In this document: piece after piece, positions 201 to 60,657 of the stretch | Layout of the letters: every line of letters begins with the position of its first letter | Position numbering within the stretch: position 1 is the first letter of the stretch | Origin: a virus | Taxonomy: Duplodnaviria > Caudoviricetes | Strand: one strand, 5' to 3' | IMG/VR virus record: IMGVR_UViG_3300005512_000001 | Location: 128,001-192,000 of that record | Length of the DNA stretch: 64,000 nt | Notes under the pieces: model-generated | What the model was told of the DNA's origin: nothing | The model's input: only the letters and a program-made list of their open reading frames with translations | Databases searched by the model: none | Made by a program: the position numbers and the translations under genes

Positions 201-473
201 ATGAATATGTTGCTTAAACTCGGTAAAAATGGCCATCCAATAACTAGAAAAATAAAAGTTCCATTAAGCCATTTAGAACTTAAGCTCATTGATAATTGCG
301 GTGTGGATATTGAAATTGGCGACAGGAAACCAATAATGACTCATATGTTTCTTGTGCGCGGACCTGGAATAAACTCAAATCTTGTTAAAAGTGTTAAGTT
401 ACCAAAACTAACATATGACGACGCATGTGAAGCTATTGCTATTGTAGAATCATACGTCTTACATGGAGATTAA
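201..473 (+). CDS. hypothetical protein
   Basis: 90 aa ORF converging on the large Ser-rich gene; no recognisable motif. Confidence 0.55.
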   Translation: MNMLLKLGKNGHPITRKIKVPLSHLELKLIDNCGVDIEIGDRKPIMTHMFLVRGPGINSNLVKSVKLPKLTYDDACEAIAIVESYVLHGD

Positions 474-3400
474 GCAGAATCACCGTCAATTGCCTCGTAT
501 GCACCCATATCGACCCTTGAACCCTGCGGCCTAGTGACACCATTTATACCAACACTGATATCTTCACCATATAAGTAGAAATACAAGTCAATGTATTCTT
601 GGAGTGACCCATTTCCAGTTCCGCTTGGAGCACCAGCATTAATAGCTGGCGATATTATACTGCCATCTTTAAGGTCGAAGTCATTATTAACTAAATCAAC
701 AAACTCGGGGTCTCCCTCTATGCAACCTTCGCCCTTGCCAGTAGCATTCTGGAAGTCAACTATTGAGGCATAAACTCCACTCCAAAGCATTCTAATGGTA
801 GAATCGCTATGTGGGTCTAATAAATTATATTCCATATCAGAAGTGCTGGCAGTAGAACCCTCAAAATTGATGTGATAATTTCCATCTGTTATCTCGGCTA
901 CGATGTTGTTTATTAAATTAATGCCATTATTAAAGCCAGCAGTTAGTCCAACGTCGCAATTACTTATTGTGTTGTTTATGAAATAAGTGTTGATTGAATT
1001 TCTCGCATGGAAGCCCACACCAATGGTGTATACACTATCTGGGTCTACTACTACATCACCATGGCTCATATTGTATATCTCATTGCCTATGACGTAAAAG
1101 TTTGTTGATTCAGTGGTTTCTATGCCATTCTCACCATCATGGATGCTGTTATTAATAAACCAAACTCTTTCTGGATTATAATGTATAACATTAGTCGCAC
1201 CAGGTCGCGGTTTGTACGCTCTACCAAATGCATATGTCTCATTTTCTGAACATACAACATCTTGGCACTCTTTTATATCAATAGCGTTTTCGCCTTCATG
1301 GTGCATAGTATTTCTAGCGACATAAATAAATTCATCGCTACTTAAATCATCGTCCATTCCATTAACTTGTATTGAATCGCCACCATTGTGATACATTTCA
1401 TTATCTATAACCCACACTCTACGTGCATATGAGTTCACAGTAACAGCATGAATGTCATTTTCATCTACCGATTGCCAATCACCATTATCATATATGATAT
1501 TATTATAAAATATGATATCATATATATAGTCAGTTGACTCTGTGCAGTAAATTGATACTCCGCCACCATCACGGCATGTGCAAGTCCTAATTATAATGTG
1601 ATGCGCATCATTTCTGCAGGTTGCACTTACTAAATCCAAATTTTCAACTATCAAATAATACGATGGATTATAATAACCTATATTAAGAACTCTATCGAGC
1701 CTTGGTAATTCCATATCGCTAGTACCACGCAAAAAGACTGGTAATTCTGCTGTACCATTTGCATATACGGAATTCTTCCCAGCTGCCCCAAGATACCCAT
1801 CTCCATGTACTTCAACAACACTGCCAGCCGCTAGAGTCTGTGGTATTGTTACTCTAGGTAAACTCGGAGTTCCATAAGTATTGCCACTATCTGTTGCGAG
1901 TGGGTCCTCTCTATCAACATAATGCGTATATGGCCCATCAGACCCAATTTTATATGGCTCTGGCCCAGCACCATAATCATAAGTATATTGTTCTCCAGTC
2001 CCATTCAGCCCGGCGTACATCCAATGTGTTTGTTCTATGCTAAATTCAGGTCTTGGTATACCAGTTGGTTTAACCCATATACCAATGCGTTCAATTTGTA
2101 TATTGTTGGTGGTGTCACTCTCACGCACCTCAACAGTTAATGTTCGCCCACGGATTAGAACAGGGTCGCCAATATTTTTCCATGGCCCTTCGGTATCAAC
2201 ATAATCGTCCGGCGGCACTGTCTGGTCTACCGTTTCAGCTTCAAGTAGGTTTGAAATATCAGAGTTTACATTGTTTACAACCCTATATTCTGCTTCAGTA
2301 GACCCAACTGTATCTGGGTCCCATGTAGCAGAAACTTGGTATTCATAACCAGGAGATAGGTTTTCGAATGCAAATACTGCTACAACACCAGAACTAGAAG
2401 AGCTAGTACTCGATGAGCTAACAGAGCTAGATGAACTGCTAGTACTCAATGAACTCGACGAGCTACTTACCGAAGAACTAGAGCTACTTACTGAAGAACT
2501 AGAACTAGACACCGAAGAGCTAGAACTCGATGAACTAGAAGAATAGCCAGATGAACTTGATGAACTCGATGAGCTACTTACTGACGAACTAGAGGAGCTA
2601 GAGGGCACCGCAACCTCGCCAATAGCACCCATAGAGAAAACAGCCATACTATTTCTTGGTTTAATAAGGTCATAATAACCTCTAGCATGCTCATGGATTT
2701 CACCGGCACTCAACGCCCGATTCCACATAGCCGCCATCCCAACCCAACCGTCCCAATAAGAGGTCTCGGCATTCCGGCCACCTATTATTAACGGATGGGA
2801 AGTATCAGCTATATCACCAGCAGTATCAGCGGCATTTTCCGCCCCTATCTCTCCATTATAATAAATAGCGCTATAGCCACTCTTGCGAACACATGTTAAT
2901 ATAAACCAATTTCTCGGGTCACGACCCGATGCTGGGTCAAGACCTAGAGGCCAGTTCGTCTGCCAATTATCGCCGCCTGTCACATCGCCGAACCATAATA
3001 GATTCTCGCTTTGTTGCCATACTAGCTCAAACGAATCGATACCGCTACCAGAACGATAAAATATATATTCTGAGCCAGTGGTAATCACCCCTTTATAATT
3101 TCTGGCCAAAATACTAACAGTGACTTCATTTACATCTAGCCTAGAATTATTAGCAACCTCAACAATCCCCAACGCCATTGCCTGGCCTTCCCAATCCCAA
3201 TTAGGGCCAGTCGGTGTCCCAAATAGTGTTTGGTCGGCAACGTTCATTACTCTGTCGCCAGTTCCTTCCCAGAAAGGCCAGTAACCTACTAATCCATTAG
3301 AAAGAGGATGCTTATTGTTAATGCCTGGTGCCCATATACGTGGTTTAACCATCGTCAATGCATTAGGTGCACCAGCTGGCGATATTTGAGAACTCGATGA

Positions 3401-4489
3401 GCTACTTACTGACGAACTAGAACTAGACACCGAAGAGCTAGAACTCGACGAGCTGCTAGGCGACACTATACTAGAGCTAGATGAACTACTGTATGGTGGT
3501 GATACTATAGAACTCGACGAGCTACTTACTGACGAACTAGAGGAACTACTTACGCTCGATGAACTACTTACTGACGAACTAGAGGAGCTACTTACGCTCG
3601 ATGAGCTACTTACTGAAGAACTACTGCTACTTATGCTCGATGAGGAGCTACTTACTGATGAACTAGAAGAGCTACTTACGCTCGATGAGCTACTTACTGA
3701 CGAACTAGAACTAGACACCGAAGAGCTAGAACTCGATGAGCTGCTAGGCGACACTATACTAGAGCTAGATGAACTACTGTATGGTGGTGATACTATAGAA
3801 CTCGACGAGCTACTTACCGAAGAACTAGAGGAGCTACTTACGCTCGATGAGCTACTTACTGAAGAACTACTGCTACTTATGCTCGATGAGGAGCTACTTA
3901 CTGAAGAACTACTGCTACTTATGCTCGATGAGGAGCTACTTACTGAAGAACTAGAAGAACTGCTCGCACTAGATGAGGAGCTACTTACCGACGAACTACT
4001 GCTACTTATGCTCGATGAGGAGCTACTTACTGAAGAACTAGAAGAACTGCTCGCACTAGATGAGGAGCTACTTACCGACGAACTACTGCTACTTACGCTC
4101 GATGAGGAGCTACTTACTGACGAACTACTGCTACTTATGCTCGATGAGGAGCTACTTACTGATGAACTGCTACTACTAGATGAGCTTGATGAACTCGGGA
4201 CAAAATCTGGGTCATATATAGTGCTAGTAAATTTGTATGCTGATATTTTGCCAGATAATATAAAATCATTAATTTGCGAGGCATTAAAACGCGTTGCTTC
4301 TATATATATAATTTCATCTATAGATAATGTTATAAGTCCACCAACATAGTGTGGAATTCTAGAATGGACCAATATTCGTGAAGCGGGTATAGTTCCACAA
4401 ATTAATGACAGCCTTTGCCCACTAATATTGGTAACAACTATTATTTCTTTGGTCAGACGAGTCTGATTCGTCTTACGTACCCGCTTCAT
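470..4489 (-). CDS. large poly-Ser surface/virion protein with LamG (ConA-like) domain, golvesin/CBM-like domain and right-handed beta-helix (pectin-lyase-like) domain
   Basis: Two poly-Ser tracts. GLVGYWPFWEG...LIIGGR...WDGWVGMAAMWNRALSAGEI is LamG-like. FENLSPGYEYQVSATW...TVDQT is golvesin-like. Repeated IxxNxIYxN / GGDSIQ / ENAIDIK turns and a C-terminal GDPEFVD..DFDL..SPAINAG..DMGAYE end are typical of beta-helix proteins. Confidence 0.8.
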   Translation of the reverse strand: MKRVRKTNQTRLTKEIIVVTNISGQRLSLICGTIPASRILVHSRIPHYVGGLITLSIDEIIYIEATRFNASQINDFILSGKISAYKFTSTIYDPDFVPSSSSSSSSSSSSVSSSSSSISSSSSSVSSSSSSVSSSSSSVSSSSSSASSSSSSSVSSSSSSISSSSSSVSSSSSSASSSSSSSVSSSSSSISSSSSSVSSSSSSISSSSSSVSSSSSVSSSSSSSVSSSSSSIVSPPYSSSSSSSIVSPSSSSSSSSSVSSSSSSVSSSSSVSSSSSSSVSSSSSSISSSSSSVSSSSSVSSSSSSSVSSSSSVSSSSSSSVSSSSSSIVSPPYSSSSSSSIVSPSSSSSSSSSVSSSSSSVSSSSSSQISPAGAPNALTMVKPRIWAPGINNKHPLSNGLVGYWPFWEGTGDRVMNVADQTLFGTPTGPNWDWEGQAMALGIVEVANNSRLDVNEVTVSILARNYKGVITTGSEYIFYRSGSGIDSFELVWQQSENLLWFGDVTGGDNWQTNWPLGLDPASGRDPRNWFILTCVRKSGYSAIYYNGEIGAENAADTAGDIADTSHPLIIGGRNAETSYWDGWVGMAAMWNRALSAGEIHEHARGYYDLIKPRNSMAVFSMGAIGEVAVPSSSSSSSVSSSSSSSSSSGYSSSSSSSSSSVSSSSSSVSSSSSSVSSSSSSLSTSSSSSSVSSSSTSSSSSGVVAVFAFENLSPGYEYQVSATWDPDTVGSTEAEYRVVNNVNSDISNLLEAETVDQTVPPDDYVDTEGPWKNIGDPVLIRGRTLTVEVRESDTTNNIQIERIGIWVKPTGIPRPEFSIEQTHWMYAGLNGTGEQYTYDYGAGPEPYKIGSDGPYTHYVDREDPLATDSGNTYGTPSLPRVTIPQTLAAGSVVEVHGDGYLGAAGKNSVYANGTAELPVFLRGTSDMELPRLDRVLNIGYYNPSYYLIVENLDLVSATCRNDAHHIIIRTCTCRDGGGVSIYCTESTDYIYDIIFYNNIIYDNGDWQSVDENDIHAVTVNSYARRVWVIDNEMYHNGGDSIQVNGMDDDLSSDEFIYVARNTMHHEGENAIDIKECQDVVCSENETYAFGRAYKPRPGATNVIHYNPERVWFINNSIHDGENGIETTESTNFYVIGNEIYNMSHGDVVVDPDSVYTIGVGFHARNSINTYFINNTISNCDVGLTAGFNNGINLINNIVAEITDGNYHINFEGSTASTSDMEYNLLDPHSDSTIRMLWSGVYASIVDFQNATGKGEGCIEGDPEFVDLVNNDFDLKDGSIISPAINAGAPSGTGNGSLQEYIDLYFYLYGEDISVGINGVTRPQGSRVDMGAYEAIDGDSA
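2390..2603 (-). repeat. second poly-Ser coding tract (linker)
   Basis: About 70 codons of mainly Ser between the LamG and golvesin-like domains. Confidence 0.85.
3385..4197 (-). repeat. low-complexity poly-Ser coding tract with internal tandem duplications
   Basis: Recurrent gagctacttactga(c/a)gaacta units; the block encoding SSSSIVSPPYSSSSSSSIVSPSSS occurs twice. Confidence 0.9.
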
Positions 4490-4513: not shown

Positions 4514-5470
4514 TTATGACATAAACCCCCTTATGTCTTCTTTACGCTTTTGTACCAACTTCTTTTTGTCTTTTGGCATATCGCCTTCACCCAAAAGCTG
4601 ATCGCAACCTTCCAAGAAGTATTCATATGCAAAATCATCAGTATACACTCGTTCTTCAGCGGTTCTAGTTTTGACGGATTTTAGAAACCCTTTAAATTCC
4701 TCAAAATAACTACCATAAATATGAAACGAATCGACGATATGAACATATTCCCCTATTTTTATACCAAGTTGTGATGCTACATATGATTGCAACTCTACAA
4801 ACGCATACATATTCATAAATGATGCCTTATAGGCATCATTGCTTCTCATATGGACAGTCATATTTAATTTAGAAATATATCCATTATCACAATTGGCACA
4901 ATGCCCCGACCCATGATTGTTATGGCATGTTTTGCATAACGACTTTTCTATTCTAAACCAAAGCCTTTGTAAGCATGCTGGGTCATGGATGCCTAAATCT
5001 TTCCAACACTGCCATGTGACTGCTTGGGCACGCCTGGTGTGGCCACAATTTTTTAGTATTTTGACGCATTGTTCGATTTGGTTTATTAGTCTTTCTTTTG
5101 GAGAATATGTTCCTTTAAACCTGCCATATTCCCAATCTTCTTCTTTTTCTATAATATCATATTCAAACAACCTCTCATGATATGTATATTCCCATTTACC
5201 AGCTGATGGGTCTACCCAGTGGTCATGGACTCCCAAAAGCACCTCATCTCTGTACTTTTCTAAATCATCTAAACCACCTGGAAATGCTCGATGGATACGT
5301 GGTTCAGCCATTGGGTTCAGGATATGTATCATTGCAGTTACATCACGGCTATTCGGGTCATCTGCCTGATCGTATTCTGTTGGGAACATTGCACCATGCC
5401 TCCAGCACTCAAACACAGCTTTTTCCCAGGCAATTGGCAGCGTATCTTCGACAATATGGATTGTTTTCAA
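4514..5470 (-). CDS. thyA: thymidylate synthase (short archaeal-type ThyA family) with a Cys-rich insertion
   Basis: Motifs YTYHERL, TRRAQAVTW, DPACLQ (catalytic Cys), MRSNDA..FMN (Asn gives dUMP specificity), DSFHIY. Probable TTG start at 5470 after GGAG. Confidence 0.8.
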   Translation of the reverse strand: MKTIHIVEDTLPIAWEKAVFECWRHGAMFPTEYDQADDPNSRDVTAMIHILNPMAEPRIHRAFPGGLDDLEKYRDEVLLGVHDHWVDPSAGKWEYTYHERLFEYDIIEKEEDWEYGRFKGTYSPKERLINQIEQCVKILKNCGHTRRAQAVTWQCWKDLGIHDPACLQRLWFRIEKSLCKTCHNNHGSGHCANCDNGYISKLNMTVHMRSNDAYKASFMNMYAFVELQSYVASQLGIKIGEYVHIVDSFHIYGSYFEEFKGFLKSVKTRTAEERVYTDDFAYEYFLEGCDQLLGEGDMPKDKKKLVQKRKEDIRGFMS

Positions 5471-5557
5471 TTTTAATCTCCAAAATTTGTTGTTGGTTCT
5501 AATACATAACGATGGTATATACTGCAAATATAAATGTGGCACTTTAGGAGTACTGAA

Positions 5558-5791
5558 ATGGTCGAAAAAGAACATAATTACCCAAAAACTAGTAGTACAG
5601 AGATGAAAAAGGTCAACAATGCTGTTGTGGGCGATTCTAAGAAACAAACCACATACAACGGCCCACACTTAAATGGTGGAAAGGGCACTGTATATAACCA
5701 AGCCAAAATCACAAATGGTTTTATGACACAAGATTCAAGACCAGGGCATAAACAGCAAGGAAATATAGAGGATAATGCGACTAATAAGTAG
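5558..5791 (+). CDS. hypothetical small protein
   Basis: AGGAG upstream of ATG 5558; hydrophilic ORF. Confidence 0.55.
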   Translation: MVEKEHNYPKTSSTEMKKVNNAVVGDSKKQTTYNGPHLNGGKGTVYNQAKITNGFMTQDSRPGHKQQGNIEDNATNK

Positions 5792-5806: not shown

Positions 5807-6406
5807 ATGAATCTATCAAACACAAAAGTTTATCTATGCGGACAAATTGAAAACGATCCAGAGGCGATGGGTTGGAGATTAGATCTGGCCCGCCGCCTCC
5901 CGCTTATCAACCCAACAATATCTGTTTGGGACCCAATGGTTAAGCCAGAATGGGTTCATCCAGATATTAAAAATAACGAAATGGCCTTCGCATGGAAACA
6001 ATATATCAATAGCAACCCCAGCGATGAGTGGCAAGGCGAAATGTGCCATATTGCTAATAAAAAAGTTCGAAGAATATGCAAACAATTGGCCAATAAATGC
6101 GATTGGATGATTGCTAGAATATGCAAAAAGTTTACATGGGGTAGTATAGATGAGTTGGAAATTGCAATAAACAGGAAAATTCCTGTATTTCTATGGCTAC
6201 CTGATGGATTGATTAGCATATATGGCATAGCTGGAGTCATAGAGGATTACAGCCTGGTCCCATATTATATGCATGAAGATATGGAATCATTACTAACTAC
6301 GATTTCCGATGTAGATAAGGGTATTTCTGATTTGCTGAAGAAAGACCCAGAGACTTGGATGACGTTATCGTGGACTAATGCTGCCTCGGAGACAAATAAT
6401 GCGTAA
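5807..6406 (+). CDS. nucleoside 2-deoxyribosyltransferase / dNMP N-glycosidase family protein
   Basis: N-terminal KVYLCG...WR, WDP, and D-x(9)-GSIDELEIA..RKIPV match the NDT/DNPH1 pattern, with the catalytic Glu retained. Confidence 0.65.
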   Translation: MNLSNTKVYLCGQIENDPEAMGWRLDLARRLPLINPTISVWDPMVKPEWVHPDIKNNEMAFAWKQYINSNPSDEWQGEMCHIANKKVRRICKQLANKCDWMIARICKKFTWGSIDELEIAINRKIPVFLWLPDGLISIYGIAGVIEDYSLVPYYMHEDMESLLTTISDVDKGISDLLKKDPETWMTLSWTNAASETNNA

Positions 6407-7103
6407 AGTAGAATTAGATGTAAACAAACAGTCACAACTAAACAGCGCGACTGAATTTACCAGGAGGCATATGTGTCCTGCGATTGTAGTGTCGCCAGAT
6501 TTGGTTACCGGCGCACATATCGCTAGGTCGGTATCAAGGTCAAACCACAAGATTATCACAGCTGTTGATTGGCCTAAAGGGACGCAATATTTAAGTGATA
6601 AATTCAGGGGAATGCCATCGGAATCAATTAGTGCTGATGGGTTTGAAATTTTACTAACTGCTAATGGAAAGCTTGGCATCCTAAAGGAAATAAAATTCCT
6701 TTCAAATTTCTTTCGTGACCATTTCCCACCAACTATAGAACTTAGGTTTGTCTTGGGGTGGCACATGCAGGATAGAACTGTAGACCAATTTGAGTATATG
6801 GTTGATGCGTGTAAACAAATACCAAATCCTACATTAATCAGAACTACCCACTTAACTAAGATTAGTTCTGCAAATGGGTCTATAGAATCACATAATAGCG
6901 TGATTGATAAAATTCTGGCAATTAGAAATATCCCAATCAAGATTAGTGGCAACATCAACGCTAAATCACGTATTGGCTGCAAAAAAGCTGTAAGATTTGC
7001 ATGCACTTTAGAGCAAGCCACAGTATTACAAAAAGCATTATCAAATAATGCTATTGGTCAAATCAATAAAGCAGTACACGAAGCTGAAGAATCCATTTCG
7101 TAA
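6399..7103 (+). CDS. deoxyribose-phosphate aldolase (DeoC)-like TIM barrel, divergent
   Basis: AIVVSP, AVDWPKG (cf. VIGFPLG), ADGFEIL (cf. ADEIDMV), IKISGNI (cf. VKASGGI). The Schiff-base Lys position appears to be Arg (LIRTT). Confidence 0.5.
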   Translation: MRKVELDVNKQSQLNSATEFTRRHMCPAIVVSPDLVTGAHIARSVSRSNHKIITAVDWPKGTQYLSDKFRGMPSESISADGFEILLTANGKLGILKEIKFLSNFFRDHFPPTIELRFVLGWHMQDRTVDQFEYMVDACKQIPNPTLIRTTHLTKISSANGSIESHNSVIDKILAIRNIPIKISGNINAKSRIGCKKAVRFACTLEQATVLQKALSNNAIGQINKAVHEAEESIS

Positions 7104-8318: not shown

Positions 8319-9569
8319 ATGTTTAATACAAACTTCGTATTTCATCCAGGGAAAATAGCAGTACTGCTAGATGGTGGTGCTGGTTCTAGCGGCAAAGGCA
8401 AATTAGCATCTTTTATAGGTGAAAACGCCAGTAATTGGCAATTTTGCTGCCAAGCATTTATGTCGAACGCCGCGCATTGGGTAATCGACGATGATGGCAA
8501 TAAATATCTATACCAAGCCCTAAACTCGGTGGCACACCTAAAAGACAAATATGAAAAGATGTATATCTGCGGTGGTGCTGTTTTAGAACTAGAGCCGCTT
8601 CTAAAAGAAATCGAGCTACATGGGCTGACACCAGATAAACTTGGCATACATCCTGTTGTTGCGATTGTGCAGCAAAAAGATGTGGATTATGAGCGTGGGG
8701 TGTGCAATTTTGAGGGCGATCCGTTTGACAATATTGTTCAATCAGATTGTATGAAGCTTGGTTCCACATTACATGGGGTCGGAGCGGCTAGAGCTAGAAG
8801 AATTTTGAGGCGGTCAGATATCTTGATTGCTAGAGACGTACCAGAGCTGCAACCTTTCCTATGTCAAACAGACTGTGAGATGATGGATAGGTTAGAACGC
8901 GGCCAAGCAGGGCTATTGGAGATAGCCCAAGGCTACCAGCTCGGCTATCTCACAAAGTTCTATCCCAAAACCACATCTCGCAATTGTACTGTCGCAGCCG
9001 GGTTGGATGATTGCGGACTACCACCATCCGTAGTACAAGATGTTCTTATTAACTTTAGAACATTCCCAATTAGAGTTAACAATAATAAATATATTCATGC
9101 TGAAACTGGTGCAGTGCTTACAGGCCAGGATATGGATGAGATGCGGGCCGCTGGCAATGCTGATATGATTAAGACACTCAAGGGCGACTCCGGTGGTTGT
9201 TATGATGACCAAGAAGAAGTGACATGGGAGTATATTACCGAATCAAGTGGCGTTAAGAATCTAGACCCAACAAGGGAGATTCGCGAGAGAACATCACTCA
9301 CAAAACTAGAACGTAGAGCATACACTTTTAGCAAGCAAAATCTACAAGATGCGATAAGGTTCAATCGTGGTAATGGCCACACATATCTATCTATCAATTT
9401 CATAAACTATGTTGATATGGCAATTGAAGGAAAACGTGGCGGGCCTGAGCAATTGACCGACAAAATCAAGACATGGATAGACGCAAATATTGAAATTATA
9501 AACCCAGAGACAGAGACTCTGAAATTCCTGGGTACCGGCGCATTAACAAACGATATGGTCGTATTATAA
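8319..9569 (+). CDS. purZ: N6-succino-2-amino-2'-deoxyadenylate synthase PurZ (adenylosuccinate synthetase paralog)
   Basis: PurA fold motifs NAAH, LGST..GVG, EIAQG, YP.TTSR, RTFPIRV. PurZ-type substitutions: GSSGKG (Ser where PurA has Asp in GDEGKG), TSLTKLERR (Leu where PurA has Arg in TTGRxRR), NFINY replacing the GTP-specific TKLD. AGGAG before ATG 8319. Confidence 0.85.
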   Translation: MFNTNFVFHPGKIAVLLDGGAGSSGKGKLASFIGENASNWQFCCQAFMSNAAHWVIDDDGNKYLYQALNSVAHLKDKYEKMYICGGAVLELEPLLKEIELHGLTPDKLGIHPVVAIVQQKDVDYERGVCNFEGDPFDNIVQSDCMKLGSTLHGVGAARARRILRRSDILIARDVPELQPFLCQTDCEMMDRLERGQAGLLEIAQGYQLGYLTKFYPKTTSRNCTVAAGLDDCGLPPSVVQDVLINFRTFPIRVNNNKYIHAETGAVLTGQDMDEMRAAGNADMIKTLKGDSGGCYDDQEEVTWEYITESSGVKNLDPTREIRERTSLTKLERRAYTFSKQNLQDAIRFNRGNGHTYLSINFINYVDMAIEGKRGGPEQLTDKIKTWIDANIEIINPETETLKFLGTGALTNDMVVL

Positions 9570-10977: not shown

Positions 10978-13900
10978 TCATTCTATCAAACACGCACCGC
11001 CTGCACAAGCCTTCTCAGAACGCAGTGTTGTGTTGTCGTCTTCTTCCCTAAATTTCGTCCAGTCGATTGATTGGCTATTATTAATTAAATTCTGCCAGAT
11101 AGTTTTATCTGATTCTGTCTTAACCTCTTCCCTTGGTGCGTTAACATATTCTTTATCGCCTGTGTCTGGCAACATTGATACGCCGCTGAAGAATTTACGG
11201 TGCCGCCATAGGAATTCTTTTACATCATCCCATTCATCTTGCTTTACAGTAATGGTGTTAGAAACATTATGTGTCACACCAGGTGACGAATTTGGTTTTG
11301 CAGTTCCAGGAATAACCCAATTACGCTGGGTCATTAATACCTTTTCTAAGAATTCAATCGCTGTTAGGTCATGCCTAGTAATAGCATTTTCAGGTGCTTT
11401 GATAGGGAATGTGATTAGGTCTTTCCTGGCATCAACTGAAATGCACATATGTGGGTTCTTATTTTTAAAATGTTTATAGACTGGGCAGTCTGGGTTGGCA
11501 CGCACTCTCCTGAAATATTTCTCTGCATGATGAGTATGAATGCCACTACCAACTGCACCTAATACAATAGATGCAGAACCGCTTGGCTTAATACATGTGA
11601 CTCTGGCTGCGGTGTTAATTCCGATTCTATTTGCAATATCAATATTGGTTTCGACTGCTACCTGTGCAGCGTTTCTCTGGATTTCCGGATTTAGTGCGAT
11701 ATCAGGATTATCCATAACGCCGGTCATCGATACACCAAGTAGTGCCTCTTTATTGCAAACTGCTTCACTTACCCATCCAAGATATTTAAAATCAGTATAG
11801 CCAGCTTGAGCTGTGCCGATAATCGCAGCAGCCTTTACACGCTCATATAGCTCTTGTTCGTTATCAACATCAGATACATTTACTTCTGTTAGGTTGCACA
11901 TCTGCCATCCCCAATGGGTGGCATTTACTTTCAGGTTTGGGAGTTTGCGGTTAGTTGATGCTGCCCACTTGCTGAGGGACATCTTCAATTCTGGTGTGAT
12001 GGTCAACTTCGGATTCATCCCGATTTCTACACAATTATGAACATACAACCCATTAGCGTCAAAAGCAGATGGGCCTGGCACCGTACAATCATACACTGGA
12101 TGAATACCTATATGATCTATTGATTTGATGGTGTCATATATATTATCAGACCAAAAGTTATTGTCTTTAATCTCTTCTAATTTTTTGGCTTTTTGTGCGT
12201 TGCTAAACCCAACCTGTGACGCGAACCTTTTAATCGATTTACCAGATATGATTAAATCATGCGTCGCTGCACAAATTACTTTTTTATATCCACCATGACC
12301 ATTAGGCATTGGAATGCGACGTTCTGCATGCCTTTCTTTAGCAATATTAGATTTTATGCCAAAATAACTTAATATGAGTTGTACTTTTTTTAGGTTATCT
12401 AGTTGATTAGAACACAATCTAATACTATATCTTCCTTTAGACGCGATAGTAACAGTTCCATCTGCATCAAAATATCCAGTCAGAAACCCTCTTAATAACG
12501 ATTTGGATGACTTCAATAATTGATCAGATATATGCTTACCACCACCCTTTAAATTTAAATCTCTGAATAGATGATATGAAACTGCTAAATTATATAATTT
12601 TTTGCTTTCTGATTGCACATAAGGATTTGCAATAATTGCTTTACTAAATTTTTCTCTACTATAATTCGGATGATTTTCGGAATTAAGTCCAGATTTTTGT
12701 AAAATATCATTGGCAAATACCCTATCTTGATATTTATCATCACCCCAAAATTTTATTTGTGCTGAATTGCCACGTGCTCTTTTAACAATATTTCCATCAC
12801 CAATAAACCATCCCAATACCAGCCCCTTGCCCCATTCTTTTTCATCTGAATATTGGTTTGATGCAGAATGGCTACTATGATCATGCAATTTGATGTTGTC
12901 ACCAACCATCAAATTTCCAACAGATTGCCACCCATTATTAGTCATGACTTTGTGATTAGCAGTAATATCAATATGTCGGCCACTTTTCATCTCAACACGT
13001 AACACTTGTTTTGATCCTGTTGGGAAGAACCCATTAGATTTGAACTTTTTACCGTCAACTACTGCTTTAAATGGCACGTCAAGTAGGTCACATACTTGTT
13101 TTAATCCATCATCGGTGCTAACCCAAGTATCGCCAGTAACACATGGGTTTGCGCCGGTATCTTCATCATCTGTAAAATAAAATCCTGGCTCGCCCCATTG
13201 CTCTGTGGCTTTAAAGATTCGACAGAATTGTCTTTTCTTGATGTCTTTGCGATGCAAAACGACAGAATTATTTGCTCTAGCACGCCATGGATGTGTACTA
13301 TACCAGTTGCCAGTTTTTGAATTCATCATCTCACCATCATCTAGTGAGAATAAACAAATCATTGCTGCTTCTCTGATTCCGCCAGCATAAACGGCGTTAG
13401 CTAGCATACACATAATATCATAACATTCGATTGGTTTTAGTTGTCTACCTTGAGCATTTTCAAGCACCTTTCTGACATTGTTTAATGACGACTTCAATGG
13501 CAGATGCCCAGGTGCTCTTCCACCTGACGTTTTGAGTAATGCACCTTGTGGCCTGATTTTGTTGTATGCGAATTCAACATATACTCCTGTACGTAAGTAT
13601 GACCTAATAAGCTCATGGGCAGCGTCGGCCCATCCTTCTATAGTATCAGGTACTATATGGTGAATAACGTTTTTCTTGTCAATAAACTTGACAGGTTCTA
13701 GCTGGTCAATGTGCTGGAATTGGACTGAAAATCCAACGCCTGTTCCACTAAGTAGAAGCCAGAATGCTTCTGAGAATGCACGCGCCCTGTTTATAATAGA
13801 AAAGCTACAGTTATAACCTTTAGCATTATTTGCCTCCATCGCTGGGCCGCCAAACTGCATAGACCTCATTGATGGTAAGACTTGCTTCGCCCGCACTTTA

Positions 13901-14373
13901 TTAAACGCCCATTCCAATTCTTTTGTGATAGAAGGATATCTATCTATATGCATTTGCTCTACACGGTCGACTATTTCTGGGAAAATTTCCCGTCGATTGA
14001 GTTCTGGTTTAAAACGTGAGTATCGCGTCATAGTTACATAATCGGCCATCATTTCAGTGTTTGGCTCTATGCGTAATTTAGCTTGCCTATCACTAAAGAG
14101 GATGAAAGCTTCTGCTACCTCATGGTATTGGTAATCCATTAACTTGCGTTTGACAATACCAGTAATAACATCGGTAGCGATTACACCATTATCAGCGGTA
14201 ATAGCAGCCTCATTGATGATAGATTCGATCAGATTTTCAAATTTACCATTTATGTCATGGCCGGTTTCTGCCGCTGACCTTTTAATCCCATACTCAATTT
14301 TAGACTTGTCAAAATCGACTAATGAACCATCACGTTTTGACACCTTTGGTGTAGTTGCAACAGAAGTGGGCAT
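10978..14373 (-). CDS. nrdJ: class II (B12-dependent, monomeric RTPR-type) ribonucleotide reductase with N-terminal ATP cone and an intein
   Basis: ATP cone VSKRDGSLVDFDKSKI; YNCSF, GTGVGFS, DTIEGWA, GEPGF, NP|C..E, CNLTE, TCIKPSG; C-terminal CAGGAC. Confidence 0.9.
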   Translation of the reverse strand: MPTSVATTPKVSKRDGSLVDFDKSKIEYGIKRSAAETGHDINGKFENLIESIINEAAITADNGVIATDVITGIVKRKLMDYQYHEVAEAFILFSDRQAKLRIEPNTEMMADYVTMTRYSRFKPELNRREIFPEIVDRVEQMHIDRYPSITKELEWAFNKVRAKQVLPSMRSMQFGGPAMEANNAKGYNCSFSIINRARAFSEAFWLLLSGTGVGFSVQFQHIDQLEPVKFIDKKNVIHHIVPDTIEGWADAAHELIRSYLRTGVYVEFAYNKIRPQGALLKTSGGRAPGHLPLKSSLNNVRKVLENAQGRQLKPIECYDIMCMLANAVYAGGIREAAMICLFSLDDGEMMNSKTGNWYSTHPWRARANNSVVLHRKDIKKRQFCRIFKATEQWGEPGFYFTDDEDTGANPCVTGDTWVSTDDGLKQVCDLLDVPFKAVVDGKKFKSNGFFPTGSKQVLRVEMKSGRHIDITANHKVMTNNGWQSVGNLMVGDNIKLHDHSSHSASNQYSDEKEWGKGLVLGWFIGDGNIVKRARGNSAQIKFWGDDKYQDRVFANDILQKSGLNSENHPNYSREKFSKAIIANPYVQSESKKLYNLAVSYHLFRDLNLKGGGKHISDQLLKSSKSLLRGFLTGYFDADGTVTIASKGRYSIRLCSNQLDNLKKVQLILSYFGIKSNIAKERHAERRIPMPNGHGGYKKVICAATHDLIISGKSIKRFASQVGFSNAQKAKKLEEIKDNNFWSDNIYDTIKSIDHIGIHPVYDCTVPGPSAFDANGLYVHNCVEIGMNPKLTITPELKMSLSKWAASTNRKLPNLKVNATHWGWQMCNLTEVNVSDVDNEQELYERVKAAAIIGTAQAGYTDFKYLGWVSEAVCNKEALLGVSMTGVMDNPDIALNPEIQRNAAQVAVETNIDIANRIGINTAARVTCIKPSGSASIVLGAVGSGIHTHHAEKYFRRVRANPDCPVYKHFKNKNPHMCISVDARKDLITFPIKAPENAITRHDLTAIEFLEKVLMTQRNWVIPGTAKPNSSPGVTHNVSNTITVKQDEWDDVKEFLWRHRKFFSGVSMLPDTGDKEYVNAPREEVKTESDKTIWQNLINNSQSIDWTKFREEDDNTTLRSEKACAGGACLIE
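12034..13143 (-). mobile_element. intein with LAGLIDADG homing endonuclease in NrdJ (370 aa)
   Basis: GANP|CVTGDT ... ITANHKV ... LGWFIGDG ... LTGYFDADG ... VYDCTV ... VHN|CVE. Confidence 0.9.
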
Positions 14374-24318: not shown

Positions 24319-25077
24319 ATGAATAATTATAAAGTGCATAGTAGAGCCGAAACATGTAAATTGATTGAGTCGTCAATTCAAAATGGCGATAGGCTGGTTG
24401 TGTCTAGATATAGTGATGGTGAAGTGAATATAATGTCAGGTATTGATGCCAGACCATCACTTGCTACTGGCAATGAAAATCCGAAATTTTTGGCCAATAA
24501 ACTAATTAATGCTATTGCTACAAAAGGGCAACTTGTGTGTATTAATGAATTAAAAGCCAAAAACATCGCTCGTAATGATAAGTGGGTTGGGGTTCAACGA
24601 TTTTTAGCAAATGCTGGTAAACGGAATACATATGGCGCAGCTAATTGGAACATTTATGATTTCCAAAATGGTTCGAAGATTTTGTCGCATCTATTTTCTG
24701 GCAAGCTGCTTGTCATAACTGGTTACGATATGATAAAAGGTGTGTTAAAGAGATATAGATCGCATTTTGATATATATAAGACGCCATTAAAAGAGATGTC
24801 CGCTAGGTTTGATGAGCATGCTATGGCTATTAATAAAATGGCTAAAAATAATTATGACAATATTTTATTTTGTTGTGGGCCATCAGGTAAAATTATTTTG
24901 TCGAAGCTTATTGGCGTATGTGAATCAAATTTGGTTGATTTAGGGTCAGTAATAAATGCTATTATAACTGGTCTTGGTAAGGCTGATATCACAAAGAGAT
25001 GGAATATGAGTTGGGTTTCTAATGTTGATCTCAATAAGTGTGCTATGCAATTTGTAAAAGGGCTTAAAAATGTGTAG
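24319..25077 (+). CDS. GT-D fold (DUF1792-like) glycosyltransferase
   Basis: SRYSDGE, CCGPSGK, VDLGS. Confidence 0.7.
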   Translation: MNNYKVHSRAETCKLIESSIQNGDRLVVSRYSDGEVNIMSGIDARPSLATGNENPKFLANKLINAIATKGQLVCINELKAKNIARNDKWVGVQRFLANAGKRNTYGAANWNIYDFQNGSKILSHLFSGKLLVITGYDMIKGVLKRYRSHFDIYKTPLKEMSARFDEHAMAINKMAKNNYDNILFCCGPSGKIILSKLIGVCESNLVDLGSVINAIITGLGKADITKRWNMSWVSNVDLNKCAMQFVKGLKNV

Positions 25078-33406: not shown

Positions 33407-34786
33407 ATGAAAATGCCCGTAAAAGAAATTAAAGCATGCATAAAATACACAGGCCCAACTGAGTTTGTTCACTTACATTGTCATACCGTCTATTCAACTC
33501 TAGATGGTGTGCAGACGCCGGAACAACTATTTGCTGCATGTGCTGAACGCGAATGGCCCGCTATTGCGATCACAGAGCATGGTGTGTTATCGTCTGTACC
33601 TGATAATTATTTTGCGGCGAAAGCGAATGGGGTTAAGTATATCGCAGCTTGTGAGATATACTTTAACGACTTTGAGCCATTAAGGCAAGAAATTATAGCT
33701 AATGGCGATACACTTAGTTCTATAAAACAGTCTGACCCTATGTTGCATTCTAGGATAGTTCGTAATCGGCATCTTACATTATTGGCTAAGAACATGACGG
33801 GCTTCAGTAACCTTATTAGGATGGTTACTGAAGCCCATAAATTTGGATTTTATGGCAGACCTAGAATATGGTTTGATAAACTACTTGAATATAAAGAGGG
33901 TCTGATAGTATTGTCTGGATGTTTAAATGGGCCAGTATCTCATGAGATTAGGCAAGATATATTACGGTCGGACAATGGGCGTGGTGCTATAGATTATGTG
34001 TTGAAATTTAGAGAGGCATTCGGAGATGATTATTATCTAGAATTACAAATGCCATGTCTTCCGGATGCTGATGCTAAAGATAAACCAGCGTTTTGGGTAT
34101 TAGACAAAATCTCTAAGAAGTTCAACATTCCATCTGTTTTGACTAATGATGCGCATTATTTAAACCGGGAAGATTTTCAAATCCAAAAACTAATGATGGC
34201 CATTAGTCAGAATTTGACAATAGATTCTCCTGATTTATTCCACGTCAATAGTGATGAACAATTCCTAAAAACTAGGGCTGAGCTATATGATACTTTCAAG
34301 CGGCATGGTTATGACAAACATACTGGCGATGACCGATTCGAAATCATGTGCGACAATACGTTGGCTGTGGCTGGTAAATGTGAATATTTCGAACCAGACC
34401 TAGAGCCGAAAATACCCACTGGCGACGGCGACCCCGTAAAATTGAAACAAATGGTTGTTCGAGAGCTTATGCGTCGTGGTTTGCATAAATGTGCTGATAA
34501 ATATGTTGTTGATAACCGCGAAGTTACATATTTTGAACAAGCTAAGATTGAACTCAATAGGTTCATAGAAAAGGGGTTCGCTAGTTATTTTTTAATTACC
34601 CGAGATTTGATACAGTTTAGTCTATCTAATGGATGGCCTATAGGGCCTAGAGGTAGTGTGGGTGGCTCGCTAGTATGTTATTTGCTTGGCATCACAGAAT
34701 TAGACCCATTGAAATGGGGGCTATCGTTTAATAGGTTTTTATCGCCATCGCGTGGTGGCTACATGTTAAATATAAAGGCTGAATAA
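33407..34786 (+). CDS. dnaE: DNA polymerase III alpha, N-terminal half (PHP domain to first palm segment)
   Basis: HLHCHTVYSTLDG, TEHG, HLTLLAKN, TNDAHY, GFASYF, GPRGSVGGSLVCYLLGITELDP, FNRFLSPSR; ends before PDID. Confidence 0.9.
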   Translation: MKMPVKEIKACIKYTGPTEFVHLHCHTVYSTLDGVQTPEQLFAACAEREWPAIAITEHGVLSSVPDNYFAAKANGVKYIAACEIYFNDFEPLRQEIIANGDTLSSIKQSDPMLHSRIVRNRHLTLLAKNMTGFSNLIRMVTEAHKFGFYGRPRIWFDKLLEYKEGLIVLSGCLNGPVSHEIRQDILRSDNGRGAIDYVLKFREAFGDDYYLELQMPCLPDADAKDKPAFWVLDKISKKFNIPSVLTNDAHYLNREDFQIQKLMMAISQNLTIDSPDLFHVNSDEQFLKTRAELYDTFKRHGYDKHTGDDRFEIMCDNTLAVAGKCEYFEPDLEPKIPTGDGDPVKLKQMVVRELMRRGLHKCADKYVVDNREVTYFEQAKIELNRFIEKGFASYFLITRDLIQFSLSNGWPIGPRGSVGGSLVCYLLGITELDPLKWGLSFNRFLSPSRGGYMLNIKAE

Positions 34787-35247
34787 TGTCTAAATTTACA
34801 AAATTAGCTGCTATGCTTAGGCGAGAATCAGAATATTCGCATTGGGCATATGCAAATGGGTCCGCTGTGTGGTCCAAGATTGTTAAATGGTTGGCGGAAA
34901 TTGAAAAATCATCTGAATTAGACTTTGATGAGTATCAATCAAAATCGCGGGCGACAGCCATTTACCCAAACTTAAATGACAATATTGCATATCCGGCTTT
35001 AGGATTGGCCGGTGAGTCTGGGGAAGTATGTGAGAAAGTCAAAAAGATTATTCGTGATAAAGATGGTGTTATTGATGATGATGATAGGTCAGAATTAGCG
35101 AAAGAGCTTGGGGATGTTTTATGGTACCTATCTAATATAGCATCTGAACTTAATATAAGCCTAGGTGGTGTGGCAAGAATAAATATTGATAAACTTGAAA
35201 GCAGAATGAAGCGTAATGCGCTTCATGGTGATGGTGATAATCGATGA
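34786..35247 (+). CDS. mazG: MazG-like nucleotide pyrophosphohydrolase
   Basis: LGLAGESGEVCEKVKK...KELGDVLWY...NIDKL. Confidence 0.85.
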   Translation: MSKFTKLAAMLRRESEYSHWAYANGSAVWSKIVKWLAEIEKSSELDFDEYQSKSRATAIYPNLNDNIAYPALGLAGESGEVCEKVKKIIRDKDGVIDDDDRSELAKELGDVLWYLSNIASELNISLGGVARINIDKLESRMKRNALHGDGDNR

Positions 35248-35998: not shown

Positions 35999-36401
35999 AA
36001 TTTTTGCAGCAAGTAGTAGAGACAATCAAATGGCAAGTTATGGTGCAGTGCTGCATGATGCCACTTTAGATGAGAAGTTTGAGTCATCGCAAATAATTGG
36101 TGATTATTCAAGGAACCAAGCAGATTTGATTGCTATGGTAATGGCATTGCGATGTGTTAAGACTGAATTTAAAGATGCCGAGATCATATTACATAGTCCG
36201 CCAGCATATGCCTCGCAGGTGGTTGAGAGGAACGACGATAACAAGTGGGTTTCAAACTCAAAAGCGAATATAGATATTGTGCGAGAGGTCCGGGGTTTGA
36301 TTGAAGAGTTTCCCAATTTGATGATTAAAAAATCTAGCGCCAACGAGGCGGCATTCAAAAGATGCATTGAGATTGCTAAAATATGTCTAAACAACAAGTA
36401 A
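35985..36401 (+). CDS. RNase HI-fold protein, apparently catalytically degenerate
   Basis: YGAVL, SRNQADLIAMVMAL, W...KANIDIV align with RNase HI, but the DG and TDS acidic residues are missing. Confidence 0.55.
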   Translation: MRQIEIFAASSRDNQMASYGAVLHDATLDEKFESSQIIGDYSRNQADLIAMVMALRCVKTEFKDAEIILHSPPAYASQVVERNDDNKWVSNSKANIDIVREVRGLIEEFPNLMIKKSSANEAAFKRCIEIAKICLNNK

Positions 36402-45002: not shown

Positions 45003-45269
45003 ATGCCATATTATGAAATACGACAATTTGATAAGATTAAATTACGTACCACTAAAAATATCCGTTACTTATCGGCACCGCCCAATGAGATGCCAAGCCC
45101 GCATGGTATCTGGACTGTAGTGGCTAATATAAATAAGGATTTATTAATTTGTAAAGGCGATGCTATATGTAGAGTGCCAGTCTCAGATGTTGTTATCGCC
45201 GGACGATCAGAAATAGACCGTATACTGGAGAGAATAGATGGCAAAAAAGCAAAAGCCAAATCAGAGTAG
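45003..45269 (+). CDS. hypothetical protein
   Basis: First ORF of the recA-helicase operon. Confidence 0.6.
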   Translation: MPYYEIRQFDKIKLRTTKNIRYLSAPPNEMPSPHGIWTVVANINKDLLICKGDAICRVPVSDVVIAGRSEIDRILERIDGKKAKAKSE

Positions 45270-46929
45270 AGAATTTGACAATAAAGAAGATGTCATGAAA
45301 GCTATTGATGACAAATTTGGGAATGGTGCTATAACATTGGGAGCTGGACCGGCACTTGATGTTCCATCTATTAGTACTGGATCGGCTTCACTTGATTTGG
45401 CATTAGGGGTATGGGGAATGCCAAAAGGCCGTATCGCTGAAGTATATGGCCCAGAGAGTAGTGGTAAGACCACATTATGCTTATCAATAATCAAGGAGTG
45501 TCAGAAGCAAGGTGGCGTAGCTGCTTTTGTTGATGCTGAACATGCGTTAGACCCAACATGGGCAAGCAATATAGGTGTTGATATTGACAACCTAATGATT
45601 AGCCAGCCATCATCTGGTGAAGAGGCATTAAGTATTGTTGAGATGCTGGCCGGTTCAAAACAGGTTGATCTTATTGTGGTTGATTCAGTTGCTGCGTTGA
45701 TTCCTCAAGCTGAAATTGATGGTGAGATGGGCGATAGGCAGATTGGTGCCCAGGCTCAATTAATGAGCAAGGCTATGCGTAAGCTTGTTAGTATAACCAA
45801 TAAATCCAATTGTACAATTATATTTATCAACCAAATTAGAATGAAGATTGGTGTTATGTTCGGTTGTTTGCATGGCGATACATTGATTAATTTTGTTGAT
45901 GGTAGTGCATTGCCAATTAAAGATGTTGTTGAAAAGAAAATTGAAGGCGATGTCTGGTGTTATGACGAAGGAAGCAATAACTTTGTTGGACGCAAGATTA
46001 TTGATTGGCACAATAATGGTGATGTTCTTGATAAATGCGATTTTCTGTCTATATTGTTGAGGGGGCCAGGCAATGGCAATGGGCGTATGAATATATGTGT
46101 TACGCCAAATCATCGCGTTTTGACCGATAATGGATGGGCTGAAGCCGGTGACTTGATAATTGGTGATAGAATAATGACGAAGCAAAAGAATATTCTATCT
46201 GGTGATTCGCATTGTATGAGAAGGAAATTACCAGATGGCGTAGATGATTGTAGGGAGTGTACACTACATGTGACTGGCCAATATAGCACCACCTATGCGG
46301 AAGTGGTATCTATTAGAACGGCTAGTAGCAGACAGTTTAGAACAAAAGGGAAATATGATATAACTGTTGATGGCTGCCACAATTATTCCGCTGGTGGTCG
46401 CCATAATGGTGTGATTGTTCATAATTCGCCGGAGACCACACCAGGCGGCCGGGCATTGAAATTCTATTCTTCCATTAGACTTGATATTCGGCGTGCCGGT
46501 GCGATCAAGAAGGGCGATGATAACATTGGGAACTCAATTAAGGTAAAAGTTGTTAAAAATAAGGTTGCGCCGCCATTTAGGCAAGCTGAATTCGGACTAT
46601 ATTTTGGGAGAGATGGATATCCGAGTGGTATTGATTATGCTAGTTCGTTGGTTGATATTGCAGTTGATGTCGGCATTATCAAACAACAAGGGTCGTGGTA
46701 CAATTATGGCGAAATGAGACTTGGGAATGGCCAAGAGAATGCCTATGGCATGATTCGTAGTAATATTGATTTGATGGCAGAGATTAGCGATAAAGTGCGA
46801 GCGGCTTTTAGTCCTGATGGTGTCGATACGGATACAGAAGATACAGAAGATAAAGATATAGAAGATAAAGATATAGAAGATAAAGATATAGAAGATAAGT
46901 CTGATGTATTAGAGGATTTCGAAGAATGA
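45238..46929 (+). CDS. recA: RecA recombinase with mini-intein and acidic repeat tail
   Basis: ISTGSASLDLALG, GPESSGKTT, DAEHALDP, VDSVAAL, FINQIR.KIGVMFG|...|SPETTPGGRALKFYSS, KNKVAPPF. Confidence 0.95.
   Translation: MAKKQKPNQSREFDNKEDVMKAIDDKFGNGAITLGAGPALDVPSISTGSASLDLALGVWGMPKGRIAEVYGPESSGKTTLCLSIIKECQKQGGVAAFVDAEHALDPTWASNIGVDIDNLMISQPSSGEEALSIVEMLAGSKQVDLIVVDSVAALIPQAEIDGEMGDRQIGAQAQLMSKAMRKLVSITNKSNCTIIFINQIRMKIGVMFGCLHGDTLINFVDGSALPIKDVVEKKIEGDVWCYDEGSNNFVGRKIIDWHNNGDVLDKCDFLSILLRGPGNGNGRMNICVTPNHRVLTDNGWAEAGDLIIGDRIMTKQKNILSGDSHCMRRKLPDGVDDCRECTLHVTGQYSTTYAEVVSIRTASSRQFRTKGKYDITVDGCHNYSAGGRHNGVIVHNSPETTPGGRALKFYSSIRLDIRRAGAIKKGDDNIGNSIKVKVVKNKVAPPFRQAEFGLYFGRDGYPSGIDYASSLVDIAVDVGIIKQQGSWYNYGEMRLGNGQENAYGMIRSNIDLMAEISDKVRAAFSPDGVDTDTEDTEDKDIEDKDIEDKDIEDKSDVLEDFEE
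45865..46425 (+). mobile_element. mini-intein (187 aa) in RecA, no intact endonuclease
   Basis: FG|CLHGDT ... VTPNHRV ... KYDITV ... IVHN|SPE; no LAGLIDADG motif seen. Confidence 0.88.
46846..46898 (+). repeat. 3.5 x 15-bp tandem repeat GAAGATAAAGATATA (EDKDI)
   Basis: Directly visible at the recA 3' end. Confidence 0.9.
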
Positions 46930-49295: not shown

Positions 49296-49311
49296 TAGTA
49301 TTGTAAATAAC

Positions 49312-60638: not shown

Positions 60639-60657
60639 CAAATACACTATACTTGTT

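Follow-up and report, generated by a model that had tools for sequence, protein, structure and literature searches.

Does a jumbo phage build its genome with 2-aminoadenine (Z) in place of adenine? The question is raised by a purZ-like gene at positions 8319-9569 (plus strand) of a 64,000-nucleotide stretch of viral DNA, hereafter the window, which covers bases 128001-192000 of the IMG/VR record IMGVR_UViG_3300005512_000001. The record is 341,434 bp long, carries direct terminal repeats and is rated 100% complete. To our knowledge, the phages in which Z-genomes have been demonstrated to date, and whose Z enzymology has been solved, are ~40-50 kb in size and rely on DpoZ or PrimPol. An earlier reading of the window, the original prediction, had proposed that the gene encodes PurZ rather than PurA and that the phage is a candidate for a Z genome. 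Our analysis favours, as the best overall explanation and with reasonable probability, a functional PurZ in a Z-genome pathway assisted by two helper proteins, one with an NDT (nucleoside 2'-deoxyribosyltransferase) fold and one with a DERA fold.

The purZ-like gene and its family

The gene is an intact, stop-free open reading frame (ORF) encoding 416 amino acids (aa). Because its N-terminus at ATG 8319 coincides with the N-termini of homologues and a ribosome-binding site (AGGAG) lies 6 nt before it, we favoured this start over the in-frame ATG at 8256. The protein belongs to the Adenylsucc_synt superfamily (PF00709, 46.4 bits against a Pfam cut-off of 27) and matches PHROG 1211. The top NCBIfam model was PurZ (NF038379, 140.9 bits), followed by the archaeal-type PurA model with 118 bits. 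Solved structures ranked in a similar order, with phiVC8 PurZ (6FM1, E = 3.6e-23) and S-2L PurZ (7ODX, 1.5e-19) ahead of Pyrococcus PurA (4e-18) and then Gordonia-phage PurZ0 (1.4e-8); the chain identities of the PurZ and PurZ0 structures were taken from PMC12884076.

More than 300 metagenomic homologues were found, with full-length identities of up to 74% (E = 1e-216), so the ORF is not a chance one. Many of the contigs that carry them are 100-430 kb long. Among the 150 nearest representatives in a set of 1.8 billion proteins, each P-loop detected was GS.GKG and none was GDEGKG. An intein-sized insert is apparent in some homologues (750-820 aa), in most of them around residue 221, where the AQG(F/Y) region lies. 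A megablast search with the window's first 20 kb returned no match.

We then placed the protein in a tree of 64 rows (LG+G4; support is given as ultrafast bootstrap/SH-aLRT). The 12 PurA references were E. coli PurA and 11 archaeal PurAs with GDEGKG, the latter retrieved with a 16S probe and a family search. PurZ was represented by S-2L, PMBT28, SH-Ab 15497, phiVC8 and phage OH, and the PurZ0 type by one Gordonia phage and one Arthrobacter phage. The Ser-type enzymes together formed one clade (100/99) that left all 12 PurA references outside. Within it, the actinophage PurZ0 group stood apart (100/100) from a crown PurZ clade (100/99) that united S-2L, phiVC8, PMBT28, SH-Ab 15497 and phage OH with the family of the query (100/99). 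The sister group of this family (96/67) contains the PurZ of a 307-kb, 98%-complete IMG/VR phage, IMGVR_UViG_3300037110_000087 (L187 among our loci, G021 among our genomes). Two quick trees with more rows agreed with this topology. The phylogeny that the original prediction had named as a check therefore groups the protein with PurZ and not with PurA or PurZ0.

Active-site and specificity residues

PurZ has been distinguished from PurA by S14 (Asp13 of PurA), F12, T262, F295, Y298, N297, P233, Y244, W252 and S273, and by the absence of Arg303, a residue in contact with the ribose 2'-OH (PMC8342488; bioRxiv 10.1101/2025.10.22.683976). We counted residues in 116 full-length members of the family. 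The motifs GSSGKG, TKLERR and NFINY, on which the original prediction was built, are all present in the query at the functional positions that it had assigned to them. Ser23 of GSSGKG aligns with E. coli PurA Asp13; this serine (S14) occurs in 116/116 members, and the 12 PurA references all have Asp. Leu330 of TKLERR aligns with E. coli Arg303, a position that is Leu in 105/116 members as well as in S-2L, SH-Ab and PMBT28.

The guanine-selecting T-K-L-D of PurA is replaced by N360-F-I-N-Y364, which gives the query an ATP-type pocket. This pocket is close to constant in the family, with N294 in 116, F295 in 115, N297 in 109 and Y298 in 116 of the 116 members. The guanine-selecting K331 and D333 of PurA correspond to Phe and Asn, and the Asp that PurZ0 has at the D333 position is absent from the query, which has Asn363 instead. 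Other PurZ-specific positions are similarly constrained: Y244 and W252 in 116/116, P233 in 115/116 and T/S262 in 114/116 (Y295, W303, P250 and T325 of the query). The catalytic residues K16, H41 (His53 of the query), T129, R143, Q224, T239, T301 and R305 are each present in 116/116. In all, 11-12 of 13 PurZ signature positions are retained, and together with the nesting in the crown clade this upholds the assignment to PurZ and not PurA. There is good support for placing the phage protein in the PurZ clade, with its PurZ-type active site intact, and we consider this highly probable.

A conserved gene module upstream of purZ

Two overlapping genes lie upstream of purZ (Table 1). The AlphaFold model of the first product, an N-glycosidase-like protein, had as its top Foldseek matches nucleoside 2'-deoxyribosyltransferases, DNPH1, YtoQ and the nucleoside monophosphate glycosidases MilB and BcmB, with a probability of 1.0 to NDT, DNPH1 and YtoQ. 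Its residues Y9, E15 and E116 are invariant among 14 homologues, and the protein thus combines the NDT/DNPH1 fold with the catalytic Tyr/Glu. In PurZ0 phages the NDT-superfamily protein DmtZ hydrolyses dAMP (PMC12884076), and an NDT that prefers dA, NDT-M2, has been obtained from dZ-enriched contigs (bioRxiv 10.1101/2025.10.22.683976). Tyr9/Glu15/Glu116 resembles the Tyr/Asp/Glu arrangement reported for DmtZ; the two proteins are not orthologous (hhalign probability 5.7%).

The second product is a TIM-barrel protein. Among the PDB matches listed for its model (to rank 48), all were DERA or DERA-derived, with E = 2e-10 and a TM-score of ~0.7. DERA has its Schiff-base Lys on beta6 (K167 in E. 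coli) and Lys201 on beta7. We judged residue equivalence from motifs and strand order, not from superposition. On this basis beta6 carries Arg in 15, Lys in three and Asn in one of 19 homologues, and beta7 carries Lys in 16 of 19, the three homologues with a beta6 Lys having Val there. None of the 19 has Lys on both strands, and a single Lys was scored as kept in 18 of 19. It looks as though the active-site lysine has migrated in this family, which would not be a canonical DERA.

We analyzed how often the module accompanies purZ. Across 66 purZ-like loci in IMG/VR, tblastn detected the NDT-like gene at 15 and the DERA-like gene at 20, and HMM (Hidden Markov Model) searches at 17 and 24, respectively. 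In nearly all loci that carry the module, the order is NDT, DERA, purZ on the same strand within 1-4 kb. The reverse search, started from the NDT-like protein, found a purZ-like gene at most 6 kb away in 17 of 20 IMG/VR loci. A purZ-like gene was present somewhere in 20 of 21 NDT-bearing records, the exception being a 31%-complete fragment. Three PurZ subclades carry the module, and on the tree it is interleaved with relatives that have DatZ and/or MazZ beside purZ (L187, L193 and L198), as expected if both sets of helpers fulfil one function. Strong purifying selection acts on the purZ module. In a literature search of a limited library we found no report of PurZ in a jumbo phage or of a phage DERA-like partner.

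Restriction-site signature

Z often blocks restriction enzymes whose sites include an A:T pair, and sites made of G and C only are still exposed. Where restriction acts on a Z genome, the palindromes lost should therefore be the G/C-only ones and no others. We compared observed 6-mer palindromes with the counts expected from a maximal-order Markov model. In the 341-kb phage the observed/expected ratio was 0.17 (38/222) for G/C-only palindromes and 0.91 for A/T-containing ones. The corresponding ratios were 0.27 and 0.89 in its closest relative (G013), 0.00 (0/176) and 0.94 in the jumbo phage with DatZ and MazZ (G021), 0.35 and 0.88 in phiVC8, a proven Z phage, and 0.54 and 0.94 in the SH-Ab 15497-like Acinetobacter phage 53. 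The contrast between the two classes in the 341-kb phage gave a Mann-Whitney p of 1.4e-6, with 6 of 8 G/C-only words falling below 0.25 compared with 3 of 54 A/T-containing words. The unmodified phage T7 avoids both classes (0.25 and 0.60; 10 of 35 A/T-containing words below 0.25), and three other phage controls showed no contrast or had low counts. The A/T-containing words whose purging recurs across the tested genomes are AGGCCT, CTCGAG and GAGCTC, and the latter two are also absent from phiVC8.

This contrast supports genome-wide modification of A:T pairs. The suggestion of a Z genome is retained as a candidate, with independent support from a signature like that of phiVC8, and we regard it as probable that the virion DNA is largely Z-substituted.

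Two further features of composition were noted. GATC is scarce in the 341-kb phage (215 observed, 1204 expected), as it is in phiVC8 (4 and 152). Runs of at least 30 nt that lack T (22) or A (20) are also frequent in the genome, 42 in total against ~7 expected (~3-4 of each kind); examples are genome positions 64111-64154, 53026-53069, 24327-24361 and 102717-102759(-). On the sense strand, many begin at a CACnAC-like -10 element downstream of a TTG -35 element and extend as far as the next gene's ribosome-binding site, and along these promoter-region runs the template strand is without A. We dropped such tracts as an indicator of Z; phiVC8 is also enriched in them, but in coding Gly-rich repeats.

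A candidate route to Z-DNA and its helper genes

The gene content suggests the following pathway. PurZ would condense dGMP with aspartate, using ATP, to N6-succino-2-amino-2'-deoxyadenylate (dSMP). The phage's adenylosuccinate lyase PurB, or that of the host, would cleave dSMP to dZMP, kinases would convert this to dZTP, and a DnaE-based replisome would incorporate dZ in place of adenine. On the removal side, the NDT-fold N-glycosidase is predicted to cleave dAMP, yielding adenine and deoxyribose-5-phosphate, and the DERA-fold enzyme to dispose of the latter, which would make the loss irreversible. The MazG, dUTPase-family and adenosine-deaminase-family proteins are candidates for the conversion of dNTPs to dNMPs and for the removal of adenine, and the deaminase-family enzyme may recycle adenine towards guanine nucleotides that feed PurZ. 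The data show the family membership, the retention of catalytic and specificity residues, the conserved module, the partners' folds and the restriction-site signature across the genome; all substrates, the way the flux runs and the occurrence of Z in the virion DNA are inferred. The roles proposed for the NDT-fold and DERA-fold proteins are drawn from fold, conserved residues, synteny and analogy.

Four genes are candidate substitutes for DatZ in the genome: those of the NDT-fold, DERA-fold, dUTPase-family and A_deaminase proteins. The dUTPase-family protein is 42% identical to Ghobes-type DutZ and equally similar to ordinary dUTPases. The adenosine-deaminase-family gene, which lies outside the window, is shared with the closest relative and missing from the jumbo phage with DatZ and MazZ. 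The MazG protein of the window is a candidate supplier of dGMP and/or dAMP. Family searches elsewhere in the genome yielded a MazG match at 89368, albeit a weak one, and a Nudix protein at 90031, and a Pfam scan of genome positions 92500-100500 yielded a CCA-enzyme-like HD protein only. No phage-encoded guanylate kinase was found. The PurB is of the long type, and its closest phage relatives come from gut-phage contigs without a PurZ match.

Evidence against a Z pathway and alternative explanations

Several findings weigh against a Z genome produced in this manner. DatZ is a YfbR-like HD protein that removes dATP, and MazZ (DUF550) is a pyrophosphohydrolase that converts (d)GTP to dGMP. The search of the rest of the genome for an HD-domain DatZ, proposed with the original prediction, was negative: the complete genome contains neither DatZ (PF12917, tblastn, custom HMM) nor MazZ/DUF550 (PF04447, tblastn/HMM searches), and it gave no significant match to DpoZ. 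With these three missing, the means of excluding dATP is therefore conjectural, and adenine might be replaced only in part. A further source of dADP/dATP would be the class II ribonucleotide reductase (RNR) that the phage encodes. PurB is carried by 8 of 25 related records and 3 of the 12 complete ones, which rules it out as an obligate partner; since so few complete relatives encode it, the host PurB must often serve. The NF038379 score is below that model's curated cut-off of 300, and the 436-kb phage G018, which has a PurZ-like gene, lacks the palindrome signature (1.01 for G/C-only and 0.98 for A/T-containing words). The DERA-fold protein has Arg where motifs and strand order place the Schiff-base Lys of DERA, and its profile comparison with E. 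coli DeoC was not significant, with a local match at N-terminal motifs only.

The substrate pocket also differs. In phiVC8 PurZ, F12 lines the pocket of the 2-amino group. The query has Ala21 instead of an aromatic residue here, as do 108/116 members with Ala, and the T42 position is Trp in 88/116. Trp occurs at T42 only where residue 12 is non-aromatic (88/88), a possible compensation for the lost aromatic F12. In addition, the G256 position is Thr, and an insertion of ~35 residues follows the IRV strand near the sugar-binding loop. The protein is strongly constrained as a PurZ-type, ATP-using enzyme in which the wall of the purine pocket has been remodelled.

These differences could mean that a PurZ-derived enzyme has shifted its substrate or purpose, towards GMP or another 2-substituted purine nucleotide, partial substitution, or a function outside the DNA, for instance in counter-defence or in manipulating nucleotide pools; the NDT-fold and DERA-fold proteins would in that case belong to another salvage or modification route. 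Such a shift would accommodate the substitutions at F12, T42 and G256 and the insertion beside the loop that contacts C2', the lack of DatZ, MazZ and DpoZ, and the Arg of the DERA-fold protein. It would also suit a DnaE replicase, for which Z selectivity is undocumented in the Z-phage literature searched. We nevertheless consider it unlikely. All catalytic and nearly all PurZ-specific residues are invariant across the 116 sequences, with Leu at the 2'-OH-contacting Arg303 position as in S-2L, and close PurZ relatives are paired with canonical DatZ/MazZ. Moreover, A/T-containing palindromes are not avoided genome-wide, which argues that most A:T pairs are modified.

The palindrome test is blind to A versus T, however, its controls are few, and thymine modification would give the same signature equally well. 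DNA could accordingly be protected by hypermodification of thymine or another pyrimidine through the divergent thymidylate-synthase-family protein encoded at 4514-5668(-), with PurZ playing little or no part. The gene lies 140 nt upstream of the module, the closest solved relative of its product is the CMP 5-hydroxymethylase MilA, and T-free tracts of 30-50 nt span several promoter/5'UTR regions. The product may be a pyrimidine hydroxymethylase, judging from this match, but the similarity extends over 48 residues with E = 1e-6, which is weak, and no genes for downstream hypermodification were identified. phiVC8, a Z phage, shows the same signature and the same exceptional words (GAGCTC and CTCGAG), and the strong purifying selection on the purZ module also counts against this reading; two modifications could also coexist. 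We rate pyrimidine hypermodification in place of Z as improbable. An ordinary auxiliary PurA/PurB pair that raises AMP synthesis from IMP during infection is less probable still, and we give it very little credence. The genome does encode a PurA-superfamily enzyme and a PurB, and source annotations label many homologues 'adenylosuccinate synthase', but the universal Asp13-to-Ser change, the Phe and Asn at K331 and D333, the exclusion of all PurA references, 11 of them archaeal, from the Ser-type clade, and neighbouring genes for deoxynucleotide-type enzymes all argue against it.

Comparison with known Z systems

With a functional PurZ and a Z-genome pathway as the preferred reading, we compared the phage with characterised systems. 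The PurZ proteins of phiVC8, S-2L, SH-Ab 15497 and PMBT28 share with the query the crown clade, the Ser P-loop, a TSR(N/D)CT motif and all catalytic residues, and also P233, Y244, W252, T262, Leu/Lys at the Arg303 position and the NFxNY ATP pocket. They are 27-29% identical to the query, which is ~60 residues longer and differs in the insertion and at F12 and T42 as described above. Characterised PurZ comes from 40-50-kb phages, whereas the query family sits in phages of 100-430 kb, and the query has no adjacent datZ, mazZ or dpoZ.

The canonical datZ-mazZ-purZ cluster of S-2L (PMC8342488) is likewise a compact cluster around purZ that should make dZ precursors and remove dA precursors. In the 341-kb phage, datZ and mazZ are replaced by the NDT-fold and DERA-fold genes, and PurB is phage-encoded. 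The DutZ/DmtZ/DUF5664 system of the PurZ0 actinophages Wayne and Ghobes excludes adenine at the level of the monophosphate, pairing an NDT-superfamily dAMP N-glycosidase with an upstream dUTPase-family dATP/dGTP pyrophosphatase (PMC12884076). The 341-kb phage resembles it in having an NDT-fold gene by purZ and a DutZ-like dUTPase-family gene. Unlike that system, its PurZ is an ATP-type crown-clade enzyme and not PurZ0, and the literature searched describes no Z phage with a DERA-fold partner.

Related phages provide further points of comparison. In the 307-kb phage L187, a YfbR-like DatZ gene lies 1.4 kb downstream of purZ and a DUF550/MazZ gene 4.5 kb upstream (Table 1); with this canonical cluster and its complete lack of G/C-only palindromes, the phage is itself a strong candidate for a Z-genome jumbo phage. 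The only cultured family member found in the phage collection searched is Flavobacterium phage MaF61 (PQ858689), a 168-kb myovirus. Its PurZ-like protein belongs to the same family (33% identity) and it also encodes PurB; it differs in that the NDT/DERA pair was not found within the 25 kb examined. The paper on MaF61 reports nothing on DNA modification. This phage offers a cultured entry point to the family.

If the module works as predicted, Z-DNA would reach 100-430-kb phages of many environments, and the exclusion of adenine would have arisen three times from unrelated enzymes, the NDT/DERA helpers having been recruited independently of DatZ/MazZ and of DutZ/DmtZ. A family C polymerase could then replicate a Z genome, with three hydrogen bonds in every base pair. 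The wider proposal, that large or jumbo phages with a T4-type capsid and DnaE make Z-DNA and exclude adenine by an undescribed NDT and DERA (plus deaminase) route, is one we advance only tentatively and hold to be somewhat less probable than the Z genome of this phage. For the DERA-fold partner, whose active-site lysine is apparently displaced, no part in controlling nucleotide pools has been described. The enzymes might be of use in Z-DNA production, and the contrast between G/C-only and A/T-containing palindromes may serve as a sequence-only screen for A:T-pair modification.

Replication genes and neighbouring features

The replication genes bear out the view that this genomic context is unlike that of known Z phages. 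The replicase is a DnaE split into two ORFs, with the MazG gene and three small ORFs in between. We found no DpoZ-type polymerase with an exonuclease domain and no evidence of PrimPol, and family B polymerase is absent from the complete genome. The window also encodes a DnaB-like helicase, a gp32-like single-stranded DNA-binding protein and a flap endonuclease (FEN). Of the gp41-, gp32- and UvsY-type neighbours predicted originally, the helicase and the gp32-like protein were recovered, but a UvsY-type gene was not confirmed, and the recombinase is a RecA with an intein rather than UvsX. The 'T4-like' label holds as far as the Gp23-type major capsid gene goes, and this gene is all that it rests on.

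Table 1 Positions of the features discussed, in the window unless another sequence is named.
Feature	Sequence	Position	Strand	Details
Laminin_G_3/concanavalin-like domain protein	Window	470-4489	-	1339 aa; sole match that domain; no PHROG match
Divergent thymidylate-synthase-family protein	Window	4514-5668	-	384 aa
NDT/DNPH1-fold N-glycosidase-like protein	Window	5807-6406	+	199 aa; first module gene; AlphaFold pLDDT 85
DERA/DeoC-fold TIM-barrel protein	Window	6399-7103	+	234 aa; second module gene; AlphaFold pLDDT 93.5
PurZ-like protein	Window	8319-9569	+	
Class II (B12) RNR with LAGLIDADG intein	Window	10978-14373	-	ATP-cone, RNR-II insertion domain, Intein_splicing, LAGLIDADG_3
DnaE N-terminal piece	Window	33407-34786	+	PHP and start of DNA polymerase III alpha domain
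MazG-domain NTP pyrophosphohydrolase	Window	34786-35247	+	153 aa; Pfam MazG 44 bits
DnaE C-terminal piece	Window	36383-38899	+	DNA polymerase III alpha, fingers, helix-hairpin-helix
RecA with intein	Window	45238-46929	+	
Minimal family A polymerase without exonuclease domain	Window	49282-50478	+	Pfam DNA_pol_A 53 bits, C-terminal motifs only
REase_MTES_1575-type nuclease/Mom-family GNAT fusion	Window	51182-52561	+	Paralogue of 60658-62163
PurB adenylosuccinate lyase	Window	59265-60695	-	476 aa; Pfam Lyase_1 and ADSL_C; E = 3e-117 to solved adenylosuccinate lyases
REase_MTES_1575-type nuclease/Mom-family GNAT fusion	Window	60658-62163	-	Paralogue of 51182-52561
Adenosine/AMP-deaminase-family gene	Genome	291442-292362	-	PF00962, E = 1e-38
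MazZ	L187	5113-5439		
PurZ	L187	9980-11320		
DatZ	L187	12622-12921		

One of the two nuclease/Mom-family GNAT fusion genes lies beside PurB, and we considered it as a PurB-linked adenine modification gene; the idea was dropped given the second copy at 51182-52561. Both fusion genes look like mobile or homing-type elements outside the purine pathway. At the start of the window, the Laminin_G_3/concanavalin-like domain protein is, from its domain content, probably a fibre or receptor-binding protein.

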